Assembly (NCBI GenBank): GCA_964350645.1
Contig: CAYGJY010000001.1
Coordinates: 326,648-390,647, forward strand
Direction: 5' to 3'
DNA: 64,000 nt
From: an uncultured Candidatus Saccharibacteria bacterium
GTDB lineage: Bacteria > Patescibacteriota > Minisyncoccia > Phycocordibacterales > UBA918
The translations under genes and the position numbers were made by a program. This document shows, one piece after another, positions 1,954-17,821 of this stretch; position 1 is the first letter of the stretch, and each line of letters begins with the position of its first letter. The notes under the pieces are model-generated. The model was given only the letters and a program-made list of their open reading frames with translations, was not told the DNA's origin and did not search any database.

Positions 1954-1998
1954 GAGCGCGGCCTTCGGCCGCGCTCGACTATCCCCTGTTCTCTAAGT

Positions 1999-3936: not shown

Positions 3937-3988
3937 CACAGTTAAAATGTTAGACCAACAATGGCTTAAAATATAGCATAGATGCAAT

Positions 3989-4264
3989 TTATTGCGAGAG
4001 AGCCGTCATGACGTTTGCAAAGCACGTGTCTCCTGAACAATCGGAAAAGGGTGTGAACCCATAGAAATAGATTTCTAGAGTGTATCCAAAAACTATTAAT
4101 ACAATACCTGCTAGTGTCAGTACTCGCTCAACTTTGAATGATTTCAACACCTTTTTATCAATACGATGTTCGTGCGCAATTTCGCTGTGAGCAATAATGA
4201 CGCCAGCTGCCAGCAAGATTTTTCCAATAACACTAACTGTTAATCCCCAAAATAATAGAATCAT
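3989..4264 (-). CDS. Small hypothetical membrane protein
   Basis: A 91-aa ORF with two hydrophobic helices, whose stop lies 1 nt before the alaS start region. No recognisable motif. Confidence 0.4.
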   Translation of the reverse strand: MILLFWGLTVSVIGKILLAAGVIIAHSEIAHEHRIDKKVLKSFKVERVLTLAGIVLIVFGYTLEIYFYGFTPFSDCSGDTCFANVMTALSQ

Positions 4265-4282
4265 ATTATGTCAATATTATAG

Positions 4283-6118
4283 TTATTTTTTCTGGTTCAC
4301 CAAGTTCGAAAATGTATAAACGTCGTTTTCAAGTTGTTTAAGACCTGCTTCGAAAGAGCTAATCTTGTTAGTTTGAATTCCAATAGCTTTGAAGATATTA
4401 GCAACTGTGTCTGATTTCCCGGCACACAAGAAGGAATCTATTTGTTCGATATAATTTGGATCTTGGTAGTACTTCTCTGCCATAACATTGCTCATCAAAA
4501 TCCCAAAGGTGTAGGTGTAGACATAAAAACCATACCGAATATGTGACCAATACACATAACTATACCCGTCTTCCGGGCTTACTGTTACTCCCTCACCAAC
4601 ATAGGCTTTAAGGTGTTTTTGCATGAGATCACGCATTTCGATTCGCGTTAGACTACCTTCGGTCCGGATTCGGTTATGTAATTCGAGTTCATAATTGAAG
4701 CAGGCAATCTGACGCTGAATTGTTGCAATATTTTGAGCCACACGTTCATGTAGTAACACAATTTTTTGACTGGCATTTGCCTGTTCATAGAATTTTTTAA
4801 ATACGAAGTTTTCGAATAATGTACTAGCTGTTTCAGCGGTTGTGATTGAGTGGCCTTGATACAAAGGTGACTGAGTCTTACTGCGTTCACCATGGATTGC
4901 ATGACCCATCTCGTGCGCGAGGGTCTGTAATGAGCGGATATCATTAGTGTGGTTGAGAAAGACTTTAGTTGGCAAGTTCACAGAGTCAGACATGAAAGCA
5001 CCACCACGTTTCCCTTTACGGGGATACACATCAATCTGACCATTAACAAGCATGTTGTCAAAAATCTGACCGTATTCGGTCTTGAGACCATAAAACACAT
5101 CACGACAAATGTCGACAGCTTGGTCAAAAGTAATTACTGGAGTTTCCCCAATAGAATCGTACTTTTGCGAGTAGTCGAGAGTTGGTACGCCATGAAAAGT
5201 CGCTTTTGCTTTATAGAACTTTCGACTGAGTGCAAAACCTTTTGTACTTACAGCTGCTACGAGTGCTTCAATGCTTTTTTGGTCATCTTCGTAGGAAAGA
5301 ACGGTCTCACTGTATGGTAATGAGAAATGACGTAATTCATCTTCAGTTTTCTTGGTGGTAATAACCGCGTTGAGCTCGTGTTCTGCTACCTCGCTGATTT
5401 GCTCTAGTTCAGATAAAACTAATCGCCAGAAAGTAGGCTTTTCTTTTGAAGGTAAGCTGTTGAGTCGTTCTAGAGCTTCATTGATTGGGATTGATTCTTT
5501 TTTGTAGACGATACTTCGATTACTAATAATTTTCTCAGTGGCAGCAACCCACATGCCACTGGCTGGACCTGCTGTCAGATTGAGAATCCGTTCTTCTGCT
5601 TCAGATAGGTTGTGTTTAGCTTCCAGAAAGACTCTAGACAGATAGTAATGAAAGGGTTGTAAAGTAGTGTCGTTCAATAATTTTTTCTGGTCAGCCTTTG
5701 AAATTTTGCCCAGTTCAAGTTCAAAAAACAATAGTTCGTTGCCAGCCTTTGTGAGGCGTTCTGAAATCAAAGCTAGCTGCTTCTCGGCAACGTCGTCGTT
5801 GGCGTTGACCGCATGACGGAATCCAAAATACCTCCCTGGTTTACTAGTCTCAGGCATTGCTGCAAGCCTAGTAAGATCAACAAGAGCTTTGGTTAGTGTT
5901 TTGGTTGAGGTAGCGAAATCACTTCCACGGTAGCGTTTGGCAAAGTGTTTGTAAGCAGTAATGGTTTTCTTTAGATCAGCTTCGATTTGTGGGTCTTTGT
6001 CATTTTTGTAATATAAGGCTTTAAAATCCCATTCCGTTTTGATCTTACCAAGTTTTGGTAAGGTTGATGTCGGTTCGTACTTAAAAGGCTTCCCGGTCTT
6101 CTTTGGTTTTTTTGACAT
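4283..6118 (-). CDS. pepF: Oligoendopeptidase F, M3B family metallopeptidase
   Basis: A 611-aa protein with the zinc-binding HEMGHAIHGE (HEXXH) motif in M3-family context and an overall PepF-like length and layout. Confidence 0.8.
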   Translation of the reverse strand: MSKKPKKTGKPFKYEPTSTLPKLGKIKTEWDFKALYYKNDKDPQIEADLKKTITAYKHFAKRYRGSDFATSTKTLTKALVDLTRLAAMPETSKPGRYFGFRHAVNANDDVAEKQLALISERLTKAGNELLFFELELGKISKADQKKLLNDTTLQPFHYYLSRVFLEAKHNLSEAEERILNLTAGPASGMWVAATEKIISNRSIVYKKESIPINEALERLNSLPSKEKPTFWRLVLSELEQISEVAEHELNAVITTKKTEDELRHFSLPYSETVLSYEDDQKSIEALVAAVSTKGFALSRKFYKAKATFHGVPTLDYSQKYDSIGETPVITFDQAVDICRDVFYGLKTEYGQIFDNMLVNGQIDVYPRKGKRGGAFMSDSVNLPTKVFLNHTNDIRSLQTLAHEMGHAIHGERSKTQSPLYQGHSITTAETASTLFENFVFKKFYEQANASQKIVLLHERVAQNIATIQRQIACFNYELELHNRIRTEGSLTRIEMRDLMQKHLKAYVGEGVTVSPEDGYSYVYWSHIRYGFYVYTYTFGILMSNVMAEKYYQDPNYIEQIDSFLCAGKSDTVANIFKAIGIQTNKISSFEAGLKQLENDVYTFSNLVNQKK

Positions 6119-6683
6119 CTAAAATAAAGTTTTTATATTCGGTATAAACATGGTTGAACTCATGAATAATATCATTTTTAAGGCGTGAGTTGAGGACATT
6201 ACTGATGTCTTGATACATCAGGAGACGATCATCAAGGGTTCCTTTAAATTCCTGCATAAAGCGTGAATGGTCATCGAAGTATTCCTCCACGATCGTACGC
6301 ATATTATGGATTTTATCAGCAGCAGAAATTATAAGAGCCGGATCTGAGGCTTTTTTAAGTTTCTTGGCATAGTGTTTTTTTTGTTCTAACCACGAATGTT
6401 TTTTAGTGTCGGTATCTTGCGGTTCTGACAAATCAACAATGATATCGCGCACGTCGCCACCAAAATCTTCGACGAGTTCATCCTCAGTATAATCAGTGTC
6501 TTCTAGTGTGTCATGAAGCAGGGACGCTATTAGTGTGTCCTCGTCGTCAGAGTAATCGCGGACAATCATCATAACGGCCATCAGATGGGTAATGTATGGC
6601 AATGGCACCGAACCTTTACGAAGCTGATTCTTGTGCAAAATTGCCGCAGCACGAATGGCTTGTTCGATTCGGTAGGTGTACAT
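6081..6683 (-). CDS. Stand-alone RelA/SpoT-type HD domain hydrolase (small alarmone hydrolase-like)
   Basis: IEQAIRAAAILHKNQLRKGSVPLPYITHLMAVMMIV...LLHDTLEDT matches the SpoT/RelA HD hydrolase domain motifs, and there is no synthetase domain. 200 aa. Confidence 0.7.
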   Translation of the reverse strand: MYTYRIEQAIRAAAILHKNQLRKGSVPLPYITHLMAVMMIVRDYSDDEDTLIASLLHDTLEDTDYTEDELVEDFGGDVRDIIVDLSEPQDTDTKKHSWLEQKKHYAKKLKKASDPALIISAADKIHNMRTIVEEYFDDHSRFMQEFKGTLDDRLLMYQDISNVLNSRLKNDIIHEFNHVYTEYKNFILDVKKTKEDREAF

Positions 6684-6684
6684 C

Positions 6685-7062
6685 TTAGTTTCTTGCTTTT
6701 CTAATAGCTTTAATTAACTGCTCCGCTGGAGCTTCAAGTGCTGCAATAATAGCTTTATTTGTGTCAACTTCACGACGCGCTTTATCTGCGGCAACTACAA
6801 TACTCTTAGTATCGTCATACTCTCGTTGCAGCTGGTTCTTTATACGGCTATCTTCTTCATTTTTAATTTGGACTTCGAGATCCTTTTGCTCTTTTATGAG
6901 CTGTGGCAACTCTTTGGCTAAATCTCTATCAGCATCGGCTTTTTTAACAAATGCTTCAACTCCAGCTATTAATTCAAGAAGAGCTGTGCTGCGCGCAGTT
7001 TGGCCACCTGATCTATTTATTACTTCAATTGCTTTTCTGGCTGCATCTTTCGCTGTAGACAT
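6685..7062 (-). CDS. Hypothetical coiled-coil protein
   Basis: A 125-aa charged, heptad-rich sequence with no motif. It sits in a tight operon, with 1-3 nt gaps to both neighbours. Confidence 0.4.
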   Translation of the reverse strand: MSTAKDAARKAIEVINRSGGQTARSTALLELIAGVEAFVKKADADRDLAKELPQLIKEQKDLEVQIKNEEDSRIKNQLQREYDDTKSIVVAADKARREVDTNKAIIAALEAPAEQLIKAIRKARN

Positions 7063-7064
7063 AT

Positions 7065-7325
7065 TTAATTCAATTTAACTCCTTCTTGCAATAATAGCGC
7101 ACGTTTCTTTTCTATACCACCGCGGTTATAGCCACCTAAGGTGCCATCTGTACGGATTACCCGATGGCATGGTATCTCAGGAGCGTAGTTTGCTGCCATG
7201 ATGTTGGCCACTGCGCGAGCGGCTTGTGGGTTGCCAGCCTTCTCGGCTACTTGTTTGTAGGTTAGCACCTCACCCTTAGGTATGTTTCTAACAATGTCTC
7301 TGACTTTGTCGGCAAAAGTCTCCAT
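7065..7325 (-). CDS. Methylated-DNA--protein-cysteine methyltransferase family protein (C-terminal DNA-binding/active-site domain only)
   Basis: IPCHRVIRTDGTLGGYNRGG contains the PCHR active-site signature of the MGMT/Ogt C-terminal domain. At 86 aa it lacks the N-terminal domain. Confidence 0.7.
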   Translation of the reverse strand: METFADKVRDIVRNIPKGEVLTYKQVAEKAGNPQAARAVANIMAANYAPEIPCHRVIRTDGTLGGYNRGGIEKKRALLLQEGVKLN

Positions 7326-7328
7326 ATA

Positions 7329-8111
7329 CTATTTTTTTGTGTTATGAATAGCAAGAAGTTTTTTACCACAGGCTTCACGGTATGGACAAAATTCACAGGC
7401 AGAGCCAGTTTCAGGAAACATATCTGAATTAAGACAGGCTTTTATACTTTTTAGTGTCTCAGGTATCCAGTCGAGTTCAGCGGTAACCGGCACGAGGGTG
7501 GTTTCAAAAACAAGTTTGTCATCAAAAGCATCGACTGCTTTGTCGGCGTTAGCATAGACTAAGTAGCCAAGTTCTTCGGTCTCAAAACCATTCGCTTCTA
7601 ATAGCCAGCGATACACCCCAAGTTGACGCTTATATTGAGCTTCCCAGGGGCTGTCACCTAGTGCTTCGATTGTGCCTTCCTTTGAAGTAGACTTATAATC
7701 AACCACTATAAGCGAACCTGTTGGTGTCACCCAGATATCATCGATTGCACCGCTGACTACAAGGCCAGTTTCAGAATCGGTAGTTTCGATGCCTTCAAAA
7801 TTTTCGCGCCACGTGTCCATGTTTTTATGAGCAAAAGGAACCGCGTTGATCTTGTATTTTTCCATTATAGGATGCGGGGTAGCGGCTGTACGATGAACAT
7901 CGAATTCCTTTTTAAACAATTCATCAACAGCAATGTTGAGATTAAACGATGGAAAACCAGGACGTTTAGTACCAAGTTTATTGTCAATATAAAAGCACCG
8001 CGGGCACTCCATAAAGAAATCAATTTTTGAACGTGAAAGACGCCATTTTGCGCCACCGTAATTCCATTCTGAACTGCGATTTGGATTGTATTTGTATGTG
8101 TATTCTGCCAT
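7329..8111 (-). CDS. Cas4-like PD-(D/E)XK nuclease with 4-Cys (Fe-S) cluster
   Basis: An N-terminal CPRC cysteine and a C-terminal CEFCPYREAC (CxxCx5C) give the Cas4/DUF83 cysteine arrangement. The core nuclease motif is IVVDYKS (D...EXK-like). 260 aa. Confidence 0.65.
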   Translation of the reverse strand: MAEYTYKYNPNRSSEWNYGGAKWRLSRSKIDFFMECPRCFYIDNKLGTKRPGFPSFNLNIAVDELFKKEFDVHRTAATPHPIMEKYKINAVPFAHKNMDTWRENFEGIETTDSETGLVVSGAIDDIWVTPTGSLIVVDYKSTSKEGTIEALGDSPWEAQYKRQLGVYRWLLEANGFETEELGYLVYANADKAVDAFDDKLVFETTLVPVTAELDWIPETLKSIKACLNSDMFPETGSACEFCPYREACGKKLLAIHNTKK

Positions 8112-8130
8112 TGACTTAGTATACCAGACA

Positions 8131-8160
8131 CAAAAAAAGCCGGTTGTGCCGGCTTTTTTT
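8131..8160. terminator. Rho-independent terminator (bidirectional-looking)
   Basis: aaaaaaAGCCGGttgtgCCGGCTttttttt is a GC stem flanked by an A-run and a T-run. It lies just downstream of the stop of the 8176..8718 minus gene. Confidence 0.6.
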
Positions 8161-8175
8161 GTGTCTGTGTAAAGA

Positions 8176-8718
8176 CTACTTGGCTACAAAAGTTTCAACT
8201 GCCCCACTTACTTGGACATCTTCAGCTAGGTTGAAAACGCGATCACCATTTTCGCTGTAGAATACAACAGCGTAGGTATTTCCGGGTTCTGTTGCTCGTT
8301 GTAGAACGATTGATTGCGGCACAAGACCTTGTTCTTGACTGTATCGAACAACTCCGAGCAGACCAGCAAGCTGGCCATCAGCGTAGTCACGAACTCCGAT
8401 CCAGCCCTCATCTGATGGGAACGTAGCCCCAGCGAGTGATACTTCAAGACCAGCATCTTGATCCATGACTGAAGCGTCGCCGTCGCCTACAGGAAGCTCT
8501 GCAACTGGAGTGCTAGGAACAGCTGTGTCTGAGTCACTATCTTCTGAATCAGTACCACCTTCCATCATTTCACTTTCTTCAACTGAATCGTCATGATCCA
8601 TATGTTCTTTTGCTTCCGGTGAACCACTAAATACCCATACGAGCAAACCTCCAATAAGGAGACCGGCAATAAATGCTACGACGGTCTTCTGGCTTTCTTG
8701 CTTTTCTTGTTCTGACAT
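8176..8718 (-). CDS. Hypothetical membrane-anchored protein with highly acidic linker
   Basis: An N-terminal transmembrane helix (VVAFIAGLLIGGLLVWVF) is followed by a D/E/S-rich low-complexity stretch and a C-terminal globular domain. No motif. Confidence 0.45.
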   Translation of the reverse strand: MSEQEKQESQKTVVAFIAGLLIGGLLVWVFSGSPEAKEHMDHDDSVEESEMMEGGTDSEDSDSDTAVPSTPVAELPVGDGDASVMDQDAGLEVSLAGATFPSDEGWIGVRDYADGQLAGLLGVVRYSQEQGLVPQSIVLQRATEPGNTYAVVFYSENGDRVFNLAEDVQVSGAVETFVAK

Positions 8719-8774
8719 ATTGAAATCTGAATATTATTCGCTAAATTGCTTTTATAGCGCGATTATAGCAGGTT

Positions 8775-9635
8775 TTAGTCAGAGTTACATAGTTGACGAG
8801 CCTCAGAAAGTACTGCCTCAGTTTTTTTGGTACCAATATGCGCGTGACGCAATAAGTGTGGTTTATTGATAATATCACTACAAATAATGGCCCCACGTTT
8901 TATTAAAGCTTGTTTTTGAGCGCTTGAAAGTGTCTGTAAGACGGTAATCGGATAAAGACCAGCTCGTTGGATACGATCGTGCAGATTATCATGATGTGGA
9001 TAATCCCAACTGAGTAACTTTAACCCCACACACTCAGCATAACGCTCAGCTGTTGAAGTGAATTTTGTGTTAGTGGCAATCCAGAGTTCGCGTATGCCAC
9101 AAATATCTTTGTTACAAATCTTTATACCAGTGAGATCTAGCATGCGAGCATATGAATAGAGAGCTACTTGAAGATCAGATTTAACTCCAGGACGGGAATG
9201 AAATTTAGCTTCCATCACAAAACTATGGTCTTCTTTGTAGGCGACAACGTCGATTTCATGTTCGACACACTTTCCAGTTAGTGTCTGGCGAGTTCTGGTA
9301 GTGTATCCTTCGCGCTCTATTAAGCGAGCCATAAAATCTTCAAATGGAAAACCAGTTGGCCCTAAATTGAATAAAGCTCTCCGAAGTGAATAACGAGCTG
9401 CAACCGGTACTTCATTTTCGCGCAGGAGTGCAAATGCTTGGCTATATATCTCTTGGGTTTTAATTCCATCGTATAGCTGAGCCTCGATATGACGTACGAT
9501 TTCGCTCACTTCGTCTTTCGTTGCCCCAGATCGTCGTAATGATTTTTTTAATTTTTCAACTCGAAAGGTCTCGATGTTACCGTCGGCTTTAAGTACTTGT
9601 ACAGACATTAGGAAATAATACCACCTCCCAAACAA
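8775..9635 (-). CDS. ATP-cone domain fused to Mrr-like PD-(D/E)XK restriction-endonuclease-like domain
   Basis: The N-terminus (VQVLKADGNIETFRVEKLKKSLRRSGATKDEVSEIV) resembles the ATP-cone of NrdR/RNR. The middle region (EIDVVAYKEDHSFVMEAKFHS) has a D...E-A-K pattern like the Mrr catalytic core. It overlaps the mnmA start by about 28 nt. Confidence 0.55.
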   Translation of the reverse strand: MFGRWYYFLMSVQVLKADGNIETFRVEKLKKSLRRSGATKDEVSEIVRHIEAQLYDGIKTQEIYSQAFALLRENEVPVAARYSLRRALFNLGPTGFPFEDFMARLIEREGYTTRTRQTLTGKCVEHEIDVVAYKEDHSFVMEAKFHSRPGVKSDLQVALYSYARMLDLTGIKICNKDICGIRELWIATNTKFTSTAERYAECVGLKLLSWDYPHHDNLHDRIQRAGLYPITVLQTLSSAQKQALIKRGAIICSDIINKPHLLRHAHIGTKKTEAVLSEARQLCNSD

Positions 9636-10669
9636 ACGTCATCTGCATAGAGTACACAAGATTGCCCCGCTGACGGAATGTCGTGAGCTTCGTTTATCTG
9701 TACTATAAGCGCTTTATGTGTCATGGAAGAAATTTTAGCCTTAAGTGGCCGCTGACGATAACGTGTCTGGAGCAACACTGTTGTTCCTACAGTCAACGTA
9801 TCTGTGAAGAGATTGAGGCTCGTAAGTGCCAGCTCTCCACTCTCTGGCTTCGTTGGCTTAGTGTGACTAACCGTTATGGTATTGGTTATTAGATTGCGCT
9901 CAATTACATAATATGGTGCTTGTGTATCACTATGAACGTTGATGGTAAAACCGTGGCGCTGACCGATAGTATAAACTTGAACACCTTTATGCTCCCCTAT
10001 TACATCACCAGTTTCATTTAGTACCTCACCAACTTGTAAGTCAATAAAGTGACTTAAAAACTCAGGAATATCAATGTGTCCAAGAAAACAGACCCCCTGA
10101 CTATCTTTCTTGGTAGCCACTGGAATCCCCGCTGCTAATGCTTCTCTTCTGATTTGTTCCTTGGGTGAATTACCAACTGGGAGTAAGACGTGTCTGAGGT
10201 GCTCTGCTGGAATCATCCACAAAAAATAACTCTGGTCCTTTTCAGTATCAACACCACGAAGTAGCTTTGGTGATTCGACGTTACTCACTTGGGCATAATG
10301 ACCAGTGGCAATATAGTCGGCTCCGTGCTTCATAGCAAAGTCATAAAACACACCAAATTTTACTGCTTTGTTGCAAAGTACATCAGGATTTGGTGTACGC
10401 CCAGCAGCATACTCAGCTATAAAATAATCAGCCACCCTTTGTTTATAGGCTTCTTGTGCATCACACATTAAAAATGGCATCTGCAGATGAGCGGCAACGC
10501 GCATAGCATCGAGACGCTCTGCCTCCCAGTTGCAGTCAATAAAATCAGGTTGCCAAACACGGATAAACACGCCGACCACATCATAGCCAGCCTGTTGAAG
10601 ACGAAGTGCTGCTACGGCAGAGTCAACACCACCTGAAATTCCCACAAATACTCTTCCCCGCGCTGTCAT
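9608..10669 (-). CDS. mnmA: tRNA-specific 2-thiouridylase MnmA
   Basis: The PP-loop VFVGISGGVDSAVAA, catalytic cysteines, and a 353-aa length and domain order typical of MnmA. Confidence 0.9.
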   Translation of the reverse strand: MTARGRVFVGISGGVDSAVAALRLQQAGYDVVGVFIRVWQPDFIDCNWEAERLDAMRVAAHLQMPFLMCDAQEAYKQRVADYFIAEYAAGRTPNPDVLCNKAVKFGVFYDFAMKHGADYIATGHYAQVSNVESPKLLRGVDTEKDQSYFLWMIPAEHLRHVLLPVGNSPKEQIRREALAAGIPVATKKDSQGVCFLGHIDIPEFLSHFIDLQVGEVLNETGDVIGEHKGVQVYTIGQRHGFTINVHSDTQAPYYVIERNLITNTITVSHTKPTKPESGELALTSLNLFTDTLTVGTTVLLQTRYRQRPLKAKISSMTHKALIVQINEAHDIPSAGQSCVLYADDVCLGGGIIS

Positions 10670-10691
10670 GATGTCGCTAGGCTAGCACAGC

Positions 10692-11690
10692 CTAGCGGAG
10701 ATAGCGAGCGATATTTGCCGTGTGTTCGGTGTAGGTTTCTGCGAAGTGAAAAACTCCATCCGGATCTGTAATGTAGTAGAAATATTCAGATGGTGTTGGC
10801 TCCAAGACAGCCTTAATAGCATCAAGTCCAGGGTTACCAATTGGCGTTGGCGTTAGTCCACGATAGAGGTACGTATTATAAAGAGAATCAATCTTGAGGT
10901 CTTCAGGAGTTAATTTAGACAAAGGTTTGTCGAGTATATATTCAATAGAAGCATCAGCTTGGAGTGGCATATCGATCGCTAAACGGTTTTGTAGGACACT
11001 GGAGACAAGTTTCATTGAATCAGCCGAGTTCGCTTCTCGTTCGAGAAGAGAAGCTAAAACAATAATTTCATATTCATTCAATGGATGAAATTCAATTTGA
11101 GAGCGCAGTGGTGAAATTTGTTCTTCGTAGGTGGATCGGAGTAAGTCATAAAACTCAGCATCAGTAAATTCTTCTGGCAAGAAATAGGTCTCAGGGAATA
11201 AAAAACCTTCGTCAGTTTCTGCATAAGAGATAAAGGATGTGGGTTTAAAATTATCGAGTTTTTCAGCGGCAATAGCAGCAATTTGCTTGACGGTACTGCC
11301 TTCTGGAATAGTGACCCGCACGAGCTCATCTTTCGGGCCAATTTTTGTAATTACTGAAGCAACTTCGGTAACTGGGACTGGATTGGCAAAAGAATATGTC
11401 CCTGCCCGAATGTCTGTGGCGTCATGGAGAAAAACTAAAGTTAGGTAAAGTAAATTACTAGAAGCGACATAATCATTTGCTTCAAATTGTTCAACTATAT
11501 CGCGCACTGTGCTGCCAGGTTCAATAGTAATTTGTGAATTAGCTGGGAAGTTAGTTGGAGCAGCATAATTGCGTGCGAGATACAGACCACCCACAATGCT
11601 GATAACCAAGGATATTAAAGCGCAGGTGATAACTATCAACTTAAGTGTTTTTATCAGAGAATGTGATTCTGGTTGGTCTTGGGGAATCAT
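10692..11690 (-). CDS. mltG: Endolytic murein transglycosylase MltG (YceG-like)
   Basis: An N-terminal transmembrane helix plus the YceG signatures LQADASIEYIL and YNTYLYRGLTPTPIGNPG. Confidence 0.8.
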   Translation of the reverse strand: MIPQDQPESHSLIKTLKLIVITCALISLVISIVGGLYLARNYAAPTNFPANSQITIEPGSTVRDIVEQFEANDYVASSNLLYLTLVFLHDATDIRAGTYSFANPVPVTEVASVITKIGPKDELVRVTIPEGSTVKQIAAIAAEKLDNFKPTSFISYAETDEGFLFPETYFLPEEFTDAEFYDLLRSTYEEQISPLRSQIEFHPLNEYEIIVLASLLEREANSADSMKLVSSVLQNRLAIDMPLQADASIEYILDKPLSKLTPEDLKIDSLYNTYLYRGLTPTPIGNPGLDAIKAVLEPTPSEYFYYITDPDGVFHFAETYTEHTANIARYLR

Positions 11691-13078
11691 GGTTGTGTTG
11701 GTGGTTCAAAAATTGGAAGATTTGATGGTGCTTCCGCTCGGTTAGAGGCAATACGGTCAAGCGTTGGTGTCAGTGCTACTGTGCCCGGAATATGAAACAT
11801 GGTCGCCAGTTCTTCAACAGTCCAAATCTTTGGTTCGTCGCCCTGACAATGTGGAGCAAGTTTACGCAATTTGTAATGTTTGTGTTCAAGCGCCCTATAT
11901 TTTGGTAGCAAGTCTCCAAAAGGGTCTGAAAACCACATGTAGTTGAAATCTGTTCGCCATCTGACACCAATACTACCGCGTCCCACGCTGTCAAAAATAC
12001 TAAACGTTCGGTTAAGTGGATTAAGTAAGTCTGAGCGGAAGTGGCCCTTGCGCGCTGCATACAGGTAGCGAATATTGCCTCGAAAAGCGTGCTTCGTGGC
12101 ATTTCGTTCGATCGCTTCAACATCTTCTCGTTCGCCAGGAGAGATGCGTGGTGATCCTTCAAAATCAGTGTCCCCGGCATTGAGGGGACCTTTGGTTTCA
12201 TGGTCACGTTTAAGAAGTTCGTCTACCCGTTCTTCTGCCATTTTGTTCCAGCTTGGACCTTCAAACAACCGCAGATCACCTCGGACAAGACTTGGCTTAT
12301 TGGCAGCCCGGATAATAATTTGGAAATAGAGTCTTTCATTTGGTCCGATCTCTCCAAGACGATCAAGCAGAATTGTGATCGGATCTACTTTTTCTTCTTC
12401 TTTGGGATTGTCTTGTAGACCAAACTCAACGTACGTCTTAATCGGTCCCCATTTTTTATCTTTTTTGTTTAGATGAGTAGACCAAATTTCCCATTCTGGG
12501 TCGCCGACCTTAATTTCGCCCGCATAGTCCACTGGCTCCTCTACGAGCTCAATCCCTGGGTATTGGGAGTATATGCTGGGCACAAACTGTTCTTTCATTT
12601 TTTTGCGTGAAATGTTCACATAAAAGCGGACATCTCCCCCAATTGAAACCATCTCAAGCGAAGCGGGTTGCGGGGCTTTCCCTTGAATCCAGCCTTCATA
12701 GAAGTTATCCGGAGTAGCTTGATTCCAGAGCTGGTTTAAGACAAACTCCATTGCTTCAGGGGATTTTAGAACCTCTTGAGGTAATTTGATTCGGTATTGA
12801 ATTCTGCCCTGTTGTAAATAAAAACGCTTCCTAATGCCATCAAAATGTCTGAAGTGCCAAATAGAAAAGGTTATTAATGGTAGCCAAATCGGTGCCAAGG
12901 TGAAGAAAAAGGAAAATCCAGATGGTAACAATGTGTCAGAAACTGACCACACAGTGTAAAGCAGAAAAGCGCAAATGCCCGTAACAATATACGCAAAGTC
13001 AAGGTTATTTTCTGAGAGCCAGCTAATGGTGCCGCCAATGTACGGCAGGTCATTAAACGTAAAGTTAGTAAACGGCAT
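11687..13078 (-). CDS. Hypothetical membrane protein (large soluble C-terminal domain)
   Basis: A 460+ aa protein with N-terminal hydrophobic helices and no motif. The ORF-track start at 13123 runs into a 20-bp perfect hairpin, so an ATG at 13076-13078 (MPFTNFTF) is the more plausible start. It overlaps the mltG start by 4 nt. Confidence 0.5.
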   Translation of the reverse strand: MPFTNFTFNDLPYIGGTISWLSENNLDFAYIVTGICAFLLYTVWSVSDTLLPSGFSFFFTLAPIWLPLITFSIWHFRHFDGIRKRFYLQQGRIQYRIKLPQEVLKSPEAMEFVLNQLWNQATPDNFYEGWIQGKAPQPASLEMVSIGGDVRFYVNISRKKMKEQFVPSIYSQYPGIELVEEPVDYAGEIKVGDPEWEIWSTHLNKKDKKWGPIKTYVEFGLQDNPKEEEKVDPITILLDRLGEIGPNERLYFQIIIRAANKPSLVRGDLRLFEGPSWNKMAEERVDELLKRDHETKGPLNAGDTDFEGSPRISPGEREDVEAIERNATKHAFRGNIRYLYAARKGHFRSDLLNPLNRTFSIFDSVGRGSIGVRWRTDFNYMWFSDPFGDLLPKYRALEHKHYKLRKLAPHCQGDEPKIWTVEELATMFHIPGTVALTPTLDRIASNRAEAPSNLPIFEPPTQP

Positions 13079-13096
13079 AGGCAGTCTTATTGTACA

Positions 13097-13139
13097 ACAC
13101 ACCGGCCCAGTTTTGCGAAGCAAAACTGGGCCGGTGTGT
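13097..13139. terminator. Perfect 20-bp hairpin with GAA loop (putative terminator of the 13152..14177 gene)
   Basis: ACACACCGGCCCAGTTTTGC-gaa-GCAAAACTGGGCCGGTGTGT. There is no clear U-tract. Confidence 0.45.
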
Positions 13140-13151
13140 TGAAAGCATATA

Positions 13152-14177
13152 TTATTCAGTGATTACGTAGGTGCCGTTACTGAGGCGTTTGAAAAGATTT
13201 CCGTCTTGGAGATTGACTACGATAGTGTTGTCTTTGACGTAGCGTTCTTTGCGAACTTTGTCGATTATTTCTTCACGAGAGAGTGGGCCGTGTTTTTCAA
13301 GAATATCCCGAAGGACATCCTTTACCACACCAGCCGAGTAGCCCCACTCCGTAAGAGCGTAGAGACCGCGACCTACTAACACAAAGCGCTCGTCTTTAAT
13401 AAGTTCGTTGTGGGTAGTTGCAGTGTGAGCTTTACGACTAAACAGTTCTTCGATTGCCTCAGCGACTTCACGGAAGTGCATCGGTGAGCCATGTCGTTTG
13501 ACTACCAAGTAAGCGTAATCACGGATCCCTTTCACCCGCACGTTTGGGCTCGCAGCGTGTCCCCATTCGCCAAGTGGATTACTTGAAATTTCTTTAGAAA
13601 TTTGTAGCCAGCGCTTTAAAATTGCTTCGTCTTGTTTGTCTGCAATGCCAATCAGTTCATTACGAAATCGTTCCAAAACTTCTTCTTCTGAAACAAGTTC
13701 ATCTCGATTAAGTGACTGATGAACATTCTTGAGACCTTTCTCAACAATGTCAGCTATTTTCTTTTCTGTGTACCAACGATGTGCGTATGAGGTATTTTCT
13801 TTACTTCGATAGAATGGGTCACCAAGTACAAGGAGGAAATAGATATCGTTACGGGTCGCTGGGTCGCTGGCGATCTCTTGCAATAAGATATGTTCAGGGA
13901 TAACACCACCACCAAGAGTTTCAATCACTGTGTGCAGCTGCTGAAAAGCATCTGAAAATTCTTTATATACGTCAGATTTCTGAATTGATTGAATACCATA
14001 GTTTTCAATCTGGCGGACTCGTTCACGAGTAATACCATAGGTTTGACCAATAGCCTCTAGAGTATAGGTGTCAGTGTCTTTACCTAGACCATAACGTTTC
14101 TCGAGTACATCTCGAGCGCGATCAGGCAAAACAGCCAACATTTTAGTGCTTACTTGTTTTGGTTTAAACGTAATCAT
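13152..14177 (-). CDS. DNA-binding protein with N-terminal sigma-70 region-4-like HTH and C-terminal HARE-HTH-like winged helices
   Basis: LEAIGQTYGITRERVRQIE is a region 4.2-type HTH. Two C-terminal segments end in ...GRGLYALTEW and ...NGTYVITE, as in HARE-HTH/RpoE-delta-like domains. 341 aa. Confidence 0.45.
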   Translation of the reverse strand: MITFKPKQVSTKMLAVLPDRARDVLEKRYGLGKDTDTYTLEAIGQTYGITRERVRQIENYGIQSIQKSDVYKEFSDAFQQLHTVIETLGGGVIPEHILLQEIASDPATRNDIYFLLVLGDPFYRSKENTSYAHRWYTEKKIADIVEKGLKNVHQSLNRDELVSEEEVLERFRNELIGIADKQDEAILKRWLQISKEISSNPLGEWGHAASPNVRVKGIRDYAYLVVKRHGSPMHFREVAEAIEELFSRKAHTATTHNELIKDERFVLVGRGLYALTEWGYSAGVVKDVLRDILEKHGPLSREEIIDKVRKERYVKDNTIVVNLQDGNLFKRLSNGTYVITE

Positions 14178-14288
14178 ACTGTTGTAATTTCTAATTCCTT
14201 TGCCTCAGATCGTCAGTGATTTGAGGTAATACATCTATGCGTAGCTGTATTTGTAACATTACTGTTGACAATCGTCAAGTATCTTGTG

Positions 14289-16793
14289 TTATTTAGTTAC
14301 AATGATGTTCAAGATCTTCCCTGGTTTGTAAATAACTTTAGTAACTTCTCCATCTTTCAGCCACTTAGCTAAGTTTTGGTTGGCTTTAGTGGCTTCAAGG
14401 ACGCTCGCTTCGCTCGCATCCAGCGCCACTGTAATATCACCCCGCACCTTGCCATTAATCTGTACCCCAATAGTGACGACATCGTCTTTAGCCAGGGCCA
14501 TATCTGCTTCAGGAAATGCCTCCAAGTGAATTGAGGTTTCCCCTCCAAGCTCAGACCACAGCTCTTCAGCTAGGTGTGGTGCTAGTGGTGCTAAGAGTAA
14601 AAGCAAAGTCCGGTATGATGCAGCCGAGATGCCTTCCTTTTCCACTGAGTTAATCAGTACCATCATGGCACTAATGGCTGTATTGAACTTATATTGTGGA
14701 ATGTCTTGCCGCAATTTTTGAATAGTCTTATGAAGCTGCTTAGTCACTTCAGCTGGCTCAGAGTCAACAATATGCTCTGACAGTCCATTTACCCGCTCCA
14801 AGAAGCGTCTGATGCCAGCGATACCACCCATGTCCCATGGGTAGTTTGCGCCTTCGTATGGACCCATAAAGCCAAGATAGAGTTTAACCGAGTCAGCTCC
14901 AACTAACTTCACCTGTTCATCCGGGTCAATCACGTTCCCTTTACTTTTGCTCATTTTATTACCGTCAGGACCCAGGATCAGACCGCGGTTGATGCGTCGC
15001 TTATATGGCTCAGCGTGGACCGCTAGCCCCATATCAAAAAGAGCTTTTTGCCAAAAGCGTGAGTAAAGCAAGTGCATCGTGGTGTGCTCGGCTCCACCAA
15101 AGTACATATCAACCTGCATCCAGTCTTTTTGCGCTTCGAGACTCGCCAGTGAATCTTCATTTTCATTATCGATATAGCGCATGAAGTACCATGAAGAATC
15201 GACAAAGGTATCGAGGGTTTCAACTTCTGGCGTCCAGCCAGCTCCAAAAATATCTTCCGTGCGTTTCTTGAGTTCGGCACTTTTAGCGAGCGGCGGTTCA
15301 CCGGTTGGCTTGAAATCAACATCTTCTGGTAGTGTCCATGGTAAGTGCTCCTTGGGGATTGGATGCGCCTTCCCGGCCGGATCGTACACAATCGGAATTG
15401 GCACTCCCCAATAGCGCTGACGACCAACAGACCAGTCACGCAGACGATAGGTATTAGTCATCCGACCACCGACTTTTTCTGTGATGGCAATCTTGGCTTC
15501 TTCAGAACTCACTCCATCAAATTCACCAGAGTTGATCAAAATGCCGGGTCCAGTCCAGCAATAACTCCCCTCTTTAATAGCATCAATCGTCGCTTTTCTA
15601 TTCCTATTAATTGCCTCGCTTAAGGTCGAATTTTCTGGATGTGCATTTATAATTGGTCCGGCGAAGTGTCTGCGTAAGTCTGGTAGTGAGAAATCAGGCT
15701 TAATAACATCTATTAGTTCAATATTGTAGATTTCAGCAAATTCTTTATCTCTATCATCATGCCCTGGTACAGCCATAATTGCCCCAGTCCCATAACTCGC
15801 TAGTACATAGTCGGCGATGTACACTGGGATTTCTTCGCCTGAAGCTGGGTTAGTGGCAGTAATACCTTCCAACTTTACGCCAGTTTTTTCCTTGGTGTCG
15901 TTAAGTCGGTCTTGTTCGTCTTTCTGCTTTGTTATTTCAATATAGGTGGCTACTTCGTTCCAGTTTGTGATTGTCGCTTGGTTTTTGGTTACGAGTGGGT
16001 GCTCTGGAGCTAGAACTAAAAACGTCGCCCCATAGAGCGTATCTGCCCTGGTGGTAAATACAGTCACTTGATCATCGGTAGACAGTTTAAAATCAATTTC
16101 TGAGCCTGCAGAGCGGCCAATCCACTGTCGTTGTGCTTCTTTAATATGTTCAGGCCAGTCGAGTGTCTCAAGGTCGTCAACTAAGCGGTCAGCGTAGTCA
16201 GTAATCTTCAACATCCACTGGGGCATTTCTTTCTTTTCGATCTTGTCGCCTGACCGCTCACAGGTGTCGTCTGGAAGAACTTGTTCATTGGCAATCACTG
16301 TATTACAACCAGGGCACCAGTTCACTTTTCCTTTACCTCGGTACGCGATACCTTTTTCAAAGAATTGAGTAAACATCCACTGTGTCCATTTGTAGTAGTC
16401 CGGATCAGTCGTTGAAGCAGACATATTCCAAGTGAAAGAATTACCCATGTTACCTAGTTGGGTTTTCATGTAGTCAATATTTCCTTCAGTCCATTCCTTT
16501 GGATTGATATTGTTTTTGATCGCAGCGTTTTCTGCCGGTAGTCCAAAAGCGTCAAAACCCATTGGGTAGATAACTTGTTTCCCCATCATGCGCTGAAAAC
16601 GCACATAGATATCGGGTACACCAAAGGCGTACCAGTGGCCAATATGCAGGTTACCCGAGGGATACGGGAGTTCGACAAGGATGTATTCCTTTTCCTTGCT
16701 TTCATCGCGTTTAGTCACATCGTAGAGACCATCAGCTGCCCATTTCTCTTGCCACTTCTTTTCAATTGCCTGATTATCAAACTTTTTGTGCAT
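14289..16793 (-). CDS. leuS: Leucine--tRNA ligase
   Basis: The HIGH-type motif (PYPSGNLHIGHW), the KMSKS motif (NKMSKSKGNVIDP) and an editing-domain insertion. 834 aa. Confidence 0.95.
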   Translation of the reverse strand: MHKKFDNQAIEKKWQEKWAADGLYDVTKRDESKEKEYILVELPYPSGNLHIGHWYAFGVPDIYVRFQRMMGKQVIYPMGFDAFGLPAENAAIKNNINPKEWTEGNIDYMKTQLGNMGNSFTWNMSASTTDPDYYKWTQWMFTQFFEKGIAYRGKGKVNWCPGCNTVIANEQVLPDDTCERSGDKIEKKEMPQWMLKITDYADRLVDDLETLDWPEHIKEAQRQWIGRSAGSEIDFKLSTDDQVTVFTTRADTLYGATFLVLAPEHPLVTKNQATITNWNEVATYIEITKQKDEQDRLNDTKEKTGVKLEGITATNPASGEEIPVYIADYVLASYGTGAIMAVPGHDDRDKEFAEIYNIELIDVIKPDFSLPDLRRHFAGPIINAHPENSTLSEAINRNRKATIDAIKEGSYCWTGPGILINSGEFDGVSSEEAKIAITEKVGGRMTNTYRLRDWSVGRQRYWGVPIPIVYDPAGKAHPIPKEHLPWTLPEDVDFKPTGEPPLAKSAELKKRTEDIFGAGWTPEVETLDTFVDSSWYFMRYIDNENEDSLASLEAQKDWMQVDMYFGGAEHTTMHLLYSRFWQKALFDMGLAVHAEPYKRRINRGLILGPDGNKMSKSKGNVIDPDEQVKLVGADSVKLYLGFMGPYEGANYPWDMGGIAGIRRFLERVNGLSEHIVDSEPAEVTKQLHKTIQKLRQDIPQYKFNTAISAMMVLINSVEKEGISAASYRTLLLLLAPLAPHLAEELWSELGGETSIHLEAFPEADMALAKDDVVTIGVQINGKVRGDITVALDASEASVLEATKANQNLAKWLKDGEVTKVIYKPGKILNIIVTK

Positions 16794-16798
16794 AAAAA

Positions 16799-16828
16799 CC
16801 TCTACGTGTTTAGTAAATAACGTAGAGG
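16799..16828 (-). terminator. Hairpin plus U5 immediately upstream of the leuS start codon (terminator of upstream gene or attenuator-like)
   Basis: On the minus strand, CCTCTACG-(14 nt)-CGTAGAGG is followed by TTTTT and then the leuS ATG. Confidence 0.4.
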
Positions 16829-16921
16829 TATTATGCCTCGAAAGAATAATTTGTACAGTTTTGTCAGGCTATGGTAAGCGACTAATCCGTTATTAACTGA
16901 TTTAGTGACTCCATATTTAAT

Positions 16922-17821
16922 TTATGGTCGATACTGGTCATCAATCACGCGTTCAAAACAGTAGGTTCCAGCTAGGTACGTCCAATCGTAATTTTTTTCG
17001 CCTACTGGGTAGGCTCGGGAGTATTCATCTCGTACAGAATCTTTACTAAACTCTGCGCAGAGTTGGTACTCAGTGTCGCTTTCTACTTCATACGTGTAAG
17101 CTGCCCGTCCTTCAGGGGCTTCTGGGACAGGGAGATTGCCATACACTGCTTCAATATTTTCAGGGAGTGACTCGTTAGTACGGTAGTAGTCTTCGATCCG
17201 CCATTGCATGTCTTGCAAGTCGCCTACTTGGTTGTTATCGATCTTCATCTCGCGTACGTCAGCAGGAGTTTCTGAGTTCATGAAGCCAACAATAACAGCG
17301 AGTAGCACAACAGCACTGGCACCAATGCCAAACATAATAGATTGCTTTTCGTGTGTCTGCCAGTACCCTTGAGCGTCTTTTAAGTAGTAGTAGAAAGCAG
17401 CTCCAATACCGATCGCTAAGACAGCCGCTTTAAGTGCAAATCGTACTGTCAGTTCTCCATTTAAGAAACCATAAATTACAACAACAAAATCACCGAGTAA
17501 CACCGCCCCACCAACTAAAAGTGACAAGTAGATAAGCCACTTGGTAAGTGATAGATACATCCCCTCTTCTCGGCGACGGATTTGATTCATAGTGCGGGTT
17601 AGCCATAGATAGACAGGGAAAAACACCACCAGCATCGCAATTGAAAATTTAATACTTGAAGAAGCTTGTTCGATCTGCCAGTAGTTATCAGCTGCGTCAG
17701 GAAGGGTGACATTAATAATGCTAAATAACAAAACCACCAGTGATGTAAGAGACGCGTAGAGGGTTATAAGAGCTCCAAGCTGGAGGGCAAAGTTTTTTGG
17801 TGTGTTCATACTATTTTTCAT
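16922..17821 (-). CDS. DUF5671-like integral membrane protein
   Basis: A 299-aa protein with several transmembrane helices and a C-terminal soluble domain. The family call is from memory of the CPR DUF5671 architecture and is low-certainty. Confidence 0.45.
   Translation of the reverse strand: MKNSMNTPKNFALQLGALITLYASLTSLVVLLFSIINVTLPDAADNYWQIEQASSSIKFSIAMLVVFFPVYLWLTRTMNQIRRREEGMYLSLTKWLIYLSLLVGGAVLLGDFVVVIYGFLNGELTVRFALKAAVLAIGIGAAFYYYLKDAQGYWQTHEKQSIMFGIGASAVVLLAVIVGFMNSETPADVREMKIDNNQVGDLQDMQWRIEDYYRTNESLPENIEAVYGNLPVPEAPEGRAAYTYEVESDTEYQLCAEFSKDSVRDEYSRAYPVGEKNYDWTYLAGTYCFERVIDDQYRP

Follow-up and report, generated by a model that had tools for sequence, protein, structure and literature searches.

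What does a gene that joins an ATP-cone to a nuclease domain contribute to its cell, and does its place next to a tRNA-modification gene explain it? The question is raised by the ATP-cone/nuclease gene at 8775..9608 on the minus strand of the window (the whole 64-kb stretch of DNA analysed here), which we call X. On balance, we give an even chance to the reading that X is a nucleotide-gated nuclease, coupling nucleic-acid turnover and salvage to the nucleotide or energy state of the cell.

Gene structure and the mnmA junction

The gene and its upstream neighbours are as follows.

8775..9635, minus strand: open reading frame as given in the ORF list, TTG start, 286 aa
8775..9608, minus strand: X coding sequence, ATP-cone / PD-(D/E)XK / (HhH)2-like protein, 277 aa, ATG at 9608, TAA stop ending at 8775
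9606..9610, minus strand: TAATG junction of mnmA and X, read from the sequence; the mnmA TAA (9610-9608) and the X ATG (9608-9606) have one base in common
9608..10669, minus strand: mnmA, tRNA 2-thiouridylase, upstream of X; Pfam tRNA_Me_trans with M and C domains, E=1e-67
10692..11690, minus strand: mltG (YceG-like), co-directional with mnmA and lying upstream of it in one array; Pfam YceG, E=1.6e-68

The original prediction had placed an open reading frame at 8775-9635. The frame is present, but it lies on the minus strand and its true start is the ATG at 9608 (MSVQVLK...) rather than the TTG at 9635, as judged from an alignment of 25 homologues and from independent gene calls on 99%-identical contigs. 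The neighbours mnmA and mltG were correctly named, as their Pfam matches show, whereas the overlap had been drawn the wrong way round: instead of the stop of X overlapping the start of mnmA, the mnmA stop codon shares a base with the X start codon, which makes X the distal, downstream gene of the pair. This arrangement is common among Paceibacteria, in which the two genes overlap at 32 of 54 loci and are separated by 0-20 nt at 13 more (45/54 in all, down to 44% protein identity). Scans of 6000-17500 for promoters and terminators gave counts not above those of shuffled sequence and thus provide no evidence on transcription-unit boundaries around X.

Domain architecture and active site

The protein is predicted to consist of three domains and a highly conserved linker.

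9375..9599, minus strand: ATP-cone domain, aa 4-78; Pfam PF03477, 36.7 bits (GA 25.8), E=6e-9
9333..9398, minus strand: stretch in which the family is best conserved, AARYSLRRALFNLGPTGFPFEDF, aa 71-92; invariant alignment columns, with G83, G86, F89 and E90 invariant
9009..9353, minus strand: PD-(D/E)XK nuclease core, aa 86-200; Pfam Mrr_cat (PF04471), residues 86-198, 26.3 bits (GA 21)
9249-9251, 9210-9212 and 9204-9206, minus strand: codons of the catalytic residues D120, E133 and K135, respectively, read from the sequence
8790..8954, minus strand: C-terminal AF1548-like domain, (HhH)2-like, helical, aa 219-273; Pfam AF1548-like_C, 26.2 bits (GA 23.9)

Profile searches thus bear out both the N-terminal cone and its union with a nuclease, and the sequence confirms that X encodes a genuine fusion of an ATP-cone with a nuclease domain whose active site is predicted to be intact. 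The cone, an N-terminal beta-hairpin over a helical bundle, superposes on those of ribonucleotide reductase (RNR) and NrdR, and a flavobacterial homologue scores 32.6 bits with the same profile. The nuclease has the alpha-beta-beta-beta-alpha-beta core and an above-threshold Mrr_cat score. The stretch AARYSLRRALFNLGPTGFPFEDF, which also served as the search pattern in scans of sequence collections, links the last helix of the cone to the first helix of the nuclease, and the AF2 model (pLDDT 96.6, pTM 0.92) implies a fixed arrangement of the two domains. In NCBIfam, neither an equivalog nor a subfamily model covers the protein. The third domain, of AF1548 type and covering residues 219-273, had been overlooked; it resembles the HhH modules of RAD51 paralogues, Pol X and NusA.

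The catalytic D/E/K pattern proposed earlier, and the motif IDVVAYKEDHSFVMEAKFHS quoted for it, are indeed found in X. D120, E133 and K135 correspond to D38, E51 and K53 of AF1548 (PDB 1Y88), which have been predicted to be catalytic (PMC1821046, PMC1874628). All three are present in 104/104 representatives of the family (sharing only 33-62% identity), in which E90, E118, R155, D158 and N180 are invariant as well.

The conservation of the cone is more varied. Run against the PDB, the N-terminal profile returned mostly designed helical-repeat proteins, and an hhalign comparison with NrdA was used in its place; it pairs K7 with K9, E13 with E15, K19 with K21, T51 with T55 and Y55 with H59 of NrdA. 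We take the nucleotide contacts of E. coli NrdA to be K9, R10, E15, K21, T55 and H59. Among the 104 representatives, K7 is kept in 104, E13 in 76, K19 in 101, T51 in 98 and Y55 in 79 (with His in 16 others), so that the equivalents of K9, K21 and T55 are 94-100% conserved. The equivalent of R10, in the KRDG motif, is mostly Ala, Ser or Thr in this family (Ala 59/104, Ser 13/104) and Arg in just 4/104, so that these cones may bind nucleotides differently from canonical ones, or with another specificity. Elsewhere in the protein, C114 and C193 are conserved in 102/104 representatives, and C165, C170 and C243 are restricted to Paceibacteria; these cysteines may form a Zn or Fe-S site.

Comparison with known proteins

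The closest relative is AF1548 of Archaeoglobus fulgidus, a structural-genomics protein with the same Mrr_cat and AF1548-like_C domains and a full-length match to X (E=5e-36), but with neither the ATP-cone nor the conserved LGPxGFPFE linker. In literature searches, AF1548 turned up in fold surveys alone, where it is predicted to be a restriction-like hydrolase; as it is itself uncharacterised, no function can be transferred from it to X. The earlier label "Mrr-like" thus holds at the level of the catalytic fold only. Mrr shares the Mrr_cat PD-(D/E)XK profile (26 bits), but X lacks the Mrr_N winged-helix domain, lies in the core genome outside any defence context and is much nearer to AF1548; it is not an Mrr orthologue.

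Other proteins share single parts of X. The cones of RNR (NrdA, NrdD, NrdB) and NrdR are attached to a reductase or to a DNA-binding zinc ribbon, whereas the output domain of X is a nuclease; with NrdR only the cone aligns. Can2 and Card1 couple a CARF domain to a nuclease activated by cyclic oligoadenylate, and only their nuclease domain superposes on X (the PADLOC CARF_PDDEXK model matches the nuclease part only, E=0.006). X has an ATP-cone in place of CARF and no CRISPR or CBASS context, and its ligand is probably a primary metabolite rather than a second messenger. Among NucS/EndoMS, Hjc and XPF/Mus81, the last combines a nuclease with (HhH)2, but X has no NucS N-terminal domain, PCNA-binding motif, sequence-level kinship or repair-gene operon. 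The (HhH)2-like domain and the similarities to NucS and Hjc would fit a DNA-repair nuclease equally well.

The family is large, with more than 5,000 clusters at 90% identity and at least 595 GTDB species, yet has no characterised member. NCBI names its members "ATP cone domain-containing protein" or, often, "restriction endonuclease", and some are labelled "Holliday junction resolvase-like predicted endonuclease" in JGI. Literature searches found no publication on the ATP-cone/nuclease fusion, in agreement with the earlier description of the protein as uncharacterised, and a multi-term search found none on the set of stress-island genes around it.

A core gene of Paceibacteria

The 54 Paceibacteria loci share a block made up of leuS, a sigma-like gene, DUF8128, mltG, mnmA, X, a membrane protein, a Cas4-like nuclease, MGMT, HD and pepF, and all genes over about 15 kb around X are syntenic. 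Within this block, X lies within 1.5 kb of the Cas4-like PD-(D/E)XK nuclease and the MGMT-type methyltransferase domain. Median identity to the protein of the window is 63% for X, 56% for MnmA and 47% for MltG; the divergence of X tracks that of its neighbours (rho 0.59-0.72), and in GC content it does not stand out from the rest of the window. A level of 60-70% identity with strict synteny is maintained throughout a whole bacterial class. No relatives were found in 50,697 phage genomes (tblastn) or in a scan of IMG/VR, and X occurs on only 2/72,556 plasmids. Judging from these sequences, X is a vertically inherited core gene of Paceibacteria, more conserved than mnmA, and the original view that it belongs to the core genome and not to a mobile island stands.

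Operon partners in other bacteria

In Bacteroidota and Chlamydiota, X is the first gene of an operon with a beta-CASP RNase, an enzyme of the thymidine/AMP-phosphorylase family and a PRPP synthase, and this operon often adjoins universal stress proteins (Usp) and P-type ATPases. X is followed by a beta-CASP/RMMBL gene in 17 of 18 Flavobacteriaceae loci, and also in Fluviicola and at loci L092, L093 and L094. The full four-gene operon (X, MBL, thymidine-phosphorylase family, PRPP synthase) is annotated on Criblamydia and Pontibacter plasmids and at L093. A census of 80 metagenome loci found beta-CASP downstream of X in 29 of 57 informative cases and Usp directly upstream in 19/57; the partner genes are all missing at 11/32 long loci, and at 23 loci of more than 6 kb without beta-CASP, phosphorylase-family, PRPP-synthase or Usp genes, P-type ATPases are the sole common neighbour. 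The phosphorylase partner falls below the AMP-phosphorylase equivalog cutoff (489 vs 535 bits). A gene set of similar composition (USPs, cation ATPase, PFK/ribokinase, RNR) appears in a paper on Burkholderia lxa and DosR; the analogy is compositional only, and the X family is not mentioned there.

Fodinibius has a glucoamylase-family gene as the second gene downstream of X, after one small ORF, and the ATP-cone that it encodes is 56% identical to that of X. This would fit the ATP-cone as a sensor common to catabolic hydrolases.

In the window's own lineage, no beta-CASP, phosphorylase, PRPP-synthase or Usp gene was found beside X or anywhere else in the 64-kb window. The role proposed below is extrapolated from relatives at just 40-50% identity.

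Discussion

The architecture of X suggests a mechanism in which each step can be named. X would be a catalytically competent endonuclease of the AF1548 PD-(D/E)XK type with a C-terminal (HhH)2-like domain that probably binds nucleic acid. The LGPxGFPFE motif would tie the N-terminal cone to the first catalytic helix, with E90 as the presumptive first active-site acid. By analogy with other cones, adenine nucleotides (ATP versus dATP, possibly ADP or AMP) would bind there and alter the conformation or oligomeric state, as in ribonucleotide reductase and NrdR, and this change would turn the nuclease on or off. Two recent reports describe NrdR cones as oligomerisation switches driven by ATP and dATP (10.1101/2024.05.27.596032, 10.1101/2025.03.28.645925). 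Acting on RNA or DNA, X may then provide the endonucleolytic entry step of a regulated nucleic-acid turnover and salvage. In many bacteria, the co-operonic beta-CASP ribonuclease, nucleoside/NMP phosphorylase and PRPP synthase would act after it, whereas in Paceibacteria X would stand alone, expressed at the end of the mltG-mnmA array through translational coupling.

A broader version of this reading is tentative. An X gated by energy charge or dATP might open a dedicated pathway for degrading nucleic acid, whether endogenous or imported, from the nuclease through a beta-CASP exonuclease and an NMP/nucleoside phosphorylase to pentose phosphates and PRPP, and so fuel survival in energy or oxygen starvation. 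For CPR bacteria, AMP phosphorylase and PRPP pathways of archaeal type have been described, through which nucleotides enter central carbon metabolism (PMC5113843). Paceibacteria, as nucleotide scavengers, might have retained this switch almost universally as part of their core genome, and the same cone subtype on a glucoamylase-family enzyme could point to a general ATP-cone-gated mobilisation of polymers.

A role in DNA repair or recombination is the alternative that survives best, at a low probability. X could be a structure-specific DNA endonuclease, with nuclease and (HhH)2 as in XPF/Mus81, NucS or Hjc, whose cone makes cleavage depend on whether dNTPs suffice (the dATP/ATP ratio) and might, for instance, adjust work on stalled forks or damaged DNA to precursor supply. 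The HhH resemblance of the C-terminal domain and the JGI label are consistent with this, as is the reading of dATP against ATP, the classical role of ATP-cones. The Cas4-like nuclease and MGMT-type domain no more than 1.5 kb away in Paceibacteria also point in this direction, but the block is one of general synteny that includes leuS, pepF and mltG, and the nearness of repair genes therefore counts little. Outside Paceibacteria, moreover, the recurrent partners are not repair genes but an RNA-type beta-CASP/RMMBL nuclease, the nucleoside/NMP phosphorylase, PRPP synthase and stress proteins.

It is unlikely that X is an ATP-gated RNA or tRNA nuclease whose coupling to mnmA reflects a joint role in tRNA quality control or turnover. 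The tight junction at 45/54 Paceibacteria loci, one distant member directly upstream of ffh-rpsP-rimM-trmD-rplS, and the RNA-type beta-CASP partners elsewhere would agree with such a link. However, adjacency to mnmA is limited to Paceibacteria, where about 15 kb is syntenic throughout; no mnmA lies beside X at the 80 other loci or in Flavobacteriaceae, and no tRNA-binding domain was detected in X.

The original prediction favoured a defence or stress effector, and the two halves of that proposal fared differently. The Usp, beta-CASP RNase, nucleoside/NMP phosphorylase and PRPP synthase genes near X in other phyla speak for stress. Defence, that is, a Mrr-like type IV enzyme or an abortive-infection nuclease set off by phage-caused changes in ATP/dNTP pools, now seems quite improbable. 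Its signs are the Mrr_cat match, the frequent NCBI name "restriction endonuclease", the resemblance of the nuclease core to the cOA-gated Can2, Card1 and NucC and to Shedu, a weak partial PADLOC match to the candidate system PDC-S02 (E=5e-4, 17.5 bits), and a GmrSD gene 5 kb from X at one locus. Against them, that match is the best that PADLOC-DB 2.0 gave, all its matches being partial and below threshold, and no Mrr_N, methyltransferase or other defence gene adjoins X at the 54 Paceibacteria and 18 flavobacterial loci. The lack of copies in phages and IMG/VR and their rarity on plasmids also argue against defence, and class-wide synteny with co-divergence from housekeeping neighbours is the opposite of what patchy, fast-evolving defence genes display.

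That X is a non-catalytic, NrdR-like nucleotide-responsive transcription factor, in which the nuclease fold and HhH only bind DNA, is very improbable: NrdR does join an ATP-cone to a DNA-binding module and PD-(D/E)XK folds have at times been recruited for DNA binding, but E90, D120, E133 and K135 do not vary across 104 diverse sequences, whereas binding-only domains normally do not keep such residues, and X has no zinc ribbon and scores 14.3 bits against a cutoff of 124.65 with the NrdR model TIGR00244.

The preferred reading remains a nucleotide-gated nuclease of turnover and salvage. ATP-cones have so far been understood almost solely as regulators of ribonucleotide reduction, in RNR and NrdR, and here is a family of thousands whose best-conserved motif connects the cone to a nuclease active site that is predicted to be intact. 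Should the gating be real, ATP-cone allostery would reach into nucleic-acid degradation, and X would be a metabolite-gated counterpart of the second-messenger-gated CARF nucleases; if the cone subtype also gates the glucoamylase-family enzyme, this would be a regulatory principle beyond ribonucleotide reduction, undescribed so far. The coherent operon of Bacteroidota and Chlamydiota yields a concrete hypothesis of dormancy or energy stress that can be tested in cultivable flavobacteria. In Paceibacteria, whose genomes are tiny and which are believed to rely on nucleotide scavenging, X is among the best-conserved genes of its block.

Gene structure and domain architecture

The gene under study encodes three domains, including a bona fide ATP-cone fold and an intact PD-(D/E)XK active site. 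The original prediction of an ATP-cone joined to a Mrr-like nuclease agrees with the Pfam scores, both of which exceed the gathering score. The predicted open reading frame is present, but its real start is not at 9635: alignment with 24 close homologues places it at the ATG at 9608 (MSVQVLKADG..., 277 aa), the codon also chosen when genes were called independently on contigs 99% identical to the window.

Gene pair and protein domains (Pfam bits, gathering score in brackets)
9608-10669, minus: mnmA (Pfam), upstream of the nuclease gene
8775-9635, minus: open reading frame containing the nuclease gene, from the ORF list (TTG start, 286 aa)
Residues 4-78: ATP-cone, 36.7 (25.8)
Residues 86-198: Mrr_cat, 26.3 (21)
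Residues 219-273: AF1548-like_C, 26.2 (23.9)

In the window sequence, the mnmA stop codon (TAA, 9610-9608) and the ATG (9608-9606) have one base in common (TAATG). The nuclease gene is thus the downstream member of the pair, the reverse of the order first proposed, in which its stop overlapped the mnmA start. Translational coupling ties it to the end of mnmA in the window's lineage. Every gene from about 740 to 21150 lies on the minus strand, and a scan for consensus promoters and terminators gave counts not above those in shuffled sequence.

Residues 92-274 align with the PDB chain 1Y88 (AF1548 of Archaeoglobus fulgidus; E=5e-36, or 4e-54 with the family profile). The last ~60 residues match NusA AR2, RAD51-paralogue N-terminal domains and Pol X, which makes this domain (HhH)2-like. 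An AlphaFold2 model built from 104 diverse homologues was very confident (pLDDT 96.6, pTM 0.92). No NCBIfam model covers the protein.

Conservation of the active site and the cone

When 1.84 billion cluster representatives were searched exhaustively, relatives turned up in 1,215 clusters at 50% identity (E<1e-3), 439 of them at E<1e-30; the best 150 are nearly all full-length, at about 280 aa. Across 104 representatives, 33-62% identical to the window protein, K7, G83, G86, F89, E90, G112, E118, D120, E133, K135, R155, D158, N180, W201 and P220 are invariant. The catalytic D/E/K residues are among these: D120, E133 and K135 correspond to D38, E51 and K53 of AF1548, predicted to be catalytic by two earlier fold surveys (PMC1821046, PMC1874628); the AF1548 numbering is offset because the deposited chain and the papers differ by 13 residues.

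The N-terminal profile matches E. coli NrdA with an hhalign probability of 94%. NrdA K9 aligns with K7 (104/104), K21 with K19 (101/104), T55 with T51 (98/104), E15 with E13 (76/104) and H59 with Y55 (Tyr in 79, His in 16 of the 104). Position 8, equivalent to NrdA R10, is Ala in 59 representatives, Ser in 13 and Arg in only 4, so most members lack the KRDG arginine, which may bear on ligand binding or specificity. The most conserved stretch is the linker AxRYxLKxAxxxLGPxGFPFE, which runs from the last cone helix to the first nuclease helix, ends in the invariant E90 and would be an obvious path for allosteric coupling.

All Paceibacteria homologues have five cysteines in common (C114, C165, C170, C193, C243); 102/104 representatives of the family keep C114 and C193 as well, and AF1548 has Cys aligned with C114, C193 and C243. 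A metal site or a disulfide is possible. One 512-aa representative, P0206, carries a ~238-aa lysine-rich, histone H1-like extension before the cone, with a sub-threshold HC2 profile match.

A core block in Paceibacteria

In 54 Paceibacteria loci the gene lies in one conserved block: leuS, the sigma70_r4/HARE-HTH protein, DUF8128, mltG (YceG, a Pfam-supported neighbour), mnmA, the nuclease gene, a membrane protein, a Cas4-like PDDEXK_1 nuclease, an MGMT domain, HD_4 (SpoT-like) and pepF. The junction with mnmA overlaps in 32 and spans 0-20 nt in 13 more. Median identities to the window proteins are 72% (sigma-like), 69% (Cas4-like), 63% (the fusion protein), 56% (mnmA) and 47% (mltG), and the divergence of the fusion protein tracks that of its neighbours (Spearman 0.59-0.72). 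At 41.4%, its GC content is unremarkable beside the 43.2% of the window, which otherwise consists of core genome (alaS, ATP synthase, uvrA, uvrB, RND pump). Synteny, co-divergence and GC together mark it as a housekeeping gene inherited vertically in this lineage, in line with the original placement in a core operon rather than on a mobile island.

Other genes of the block in the window
13152-14177, minus: Sigma70 region 4 + HARE-HTH protein, 341 aa; the block's most conserved gene, with an architecture unusual for a sigma-like factor
11687-13123, minus: DUF8128-family ORF, 478 aa from TTG (463 aa as called on the near-identical contig L001), overlapping mltG by 4 nt; the least conserved gene (median 40%), matched by precomputed annotation (PF26449) and not by the Pfam-A search
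7329-8111, minus: Cas4-like nuclease, 260 aa, C-terminal Cys cluster CEFCPYREAC, no CRISPR context; two genes downstream of the fusion gene in nearly all Paceibacteria loci
7065-7325, minus: MGMT DNA_binding_1-only protein, 86 aa, PCHR motif kept; predicted minimal O6-alkylguanine transferase or ATL-like protein
6081-6683, minus: stand-alone HD_4 gene (RelA/SpoT hydrolase-like, 200 aa), which may encode a small alarmone hydrolase
4283-6118, minus: pepF, its start overlapped by HD_4 by 38 nt, called alike on L001

Distribution and neighbours in other bacteria

The window copy is an ordinary member of a large uncharacterised family. The family profile (E<=1e-10) matches over 5,300 clusters at 90% identity, and members occur in at least 595 GTDB species; hosts include Patescibacteria (Paceibacteria, Nomurabacteria, Kaiserbacteria, Campbellbacteria, Microgenomates), many Bacteroidota, Balneolota (Fodinibius) and Chlamydiota (Criblamydia). 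Members are named 'ATP cone domain-containing protein', 'restriction endonuclease', 'ATPase' or 'Holliday junction resolvase-like predicted endonuclease'. Pfam and NCBI already list this domain combination, so the sequence itself is not new; literature searches found no publication on the fusion, as the original prediction had supposed in calling its function uncharacterised.

In 17/18 Flavobacteriaceae loci, the gene comes after one to four universal stress proteins of the tandem type and before a beta-CASP/RMMBL metallo-hydrolase; in NCBIfam the latter is closest to aCPSF1 and Cas14-type beta-CASP ribonucleases, below equivalog cutoffs. Fluviicola taffensis has the same core beside a PAS histidine kinase and a response-regulator/cNMP/Crp protein, further flanked by cation P-type ATPase and hemerythrin/ScdA genes. 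These islands, with stress proteins, cation ATPase and PFK, resemble in composition only the hypoxia and dormancy loci described as DosR in Mycobacterium and lxa in Burkholderia (PMC3721108).

One compact four-gene operon appears in Chlamydiota, in Bacteroidota and on a metagenome contig: the ATP-cone nuclease, a beta-CASP MBL hydrolase, an archaeal-type thymidine/AMP-phosphorylase-family protein and a PRK07199-type PRPP synthase. Often a conserved ~225-aa protein without a Pfam match comes next, and after it PPK2 and a P-type ATPase. Both plasmid copies, in Criblamydia sequanensis and Pontibacter actiniarum, lie in this operon, annotated 'ATP cone domain-containing protein', 'MBL fold metallo-hydrolase', 'thymidine phosphorylase family protein' and 'ribose-phosphate pyrophosphokinase'. 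The Criblamydia operon neighbours P-type ATPase, phosphoketolase, glycogen phosphorylase, acetate kinase and glucoamylase-family genes; on the metagenome contig the four operon genes come after a type II GAPDH.

Four-gene operons
NZ_LK031773 (Criblamydia plasmid, L096): 8001-12608
NZ_CP021236 (Pontibacter plasmid, L097): 1972-6597
L093 (metagenome contig): 6001-10667

Partners in a census of 80 further non-Paceibacteria loci (57 informative; 32 with >=6 kb downstream)
beta-CASP within 4 kb downstream, same strand: 29/57
beta-CASP directly adjoining: 20/57
Usp directly upstream: 19/57
Phosphorylase family: 9/32
PRPP synthase: 8/32
P-type ATPase: 9/32
None of these: 11/32 (a third)

In Fodinibius salipaludis, two genes downstream (one small ORF between), a 511-aa ATP-cone + glucoamylase-family (PF10091) fusion (L089, 8194-9729) has a cone 56% identical to that of the nuclease, which suggests one cone subtype common to different catabolic hydrolases. 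In a distant lineage (L084, 4153-10515), a member between a PilB/MshE-type ATPase and the ffh-rpsP-KH-rimM-trmD-rplS core operon provides another housekeeping setting.

Possible functions

The protein would belong with the ligand-gated PD-(D/E)XK nucleases or the ATP-cone-regulated enzymes; no described system has an ATP-cone controlling a nuclease, and no family member has been studied. A DNA-repair nuclease tuned by dATP/ATP, to which the NucS, Hjc and HhH similarities point, is unlikely, and a tRNA or RNA role linked to MnmA more doubtful still. Phage defence, in line with one of the two effector roles (defence or stress) offered in the original prediction, is slightly less probable again: PADLOC gave sub-threshold partial matches only, no relatives were found in IMG/VR or 50,697 phage genomes, and the family is on only 2/72,556 plasmids, all in line with the strongly vertical conservation of a housekeeping, not a defence, gene. 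A non-catalytic regulator is very improbable given the invariant catalytic residues.

We give about an even chance to an adenine-nucleotide-gated nuclease that would serve as the controlled first step in the turnover and salvage of nucleic acids. Nucleotide occupying the cone would gate the nuclease, probably through oligomerisation, as in NrdR and RNR (10.1101/2024.05.27.596032, 10.1101/2025.03.28.645925). The salvage role is proposed because the partners outside Paceibacteria form a chemically coherent series, from endonuclease through beta-CASP RNase and nucleoside/NMP phosphorylase to PRPP synthase; for CPR bacteria, routes of archaeal type that lead nucleotides into central carbon metabolism by way of AMP phosphorylase and PRPP are documented (PMC5113843). 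Weak points of this reading are that no salvage partner gene adjoins the nuclease gene in Paceibacteria, that a third of the long loci have no partner, and that most members are without the KRDG arginine. The family is well defined, highly conserved and experimentally tractable, and a specific operon-based hypothesis is now in hand.
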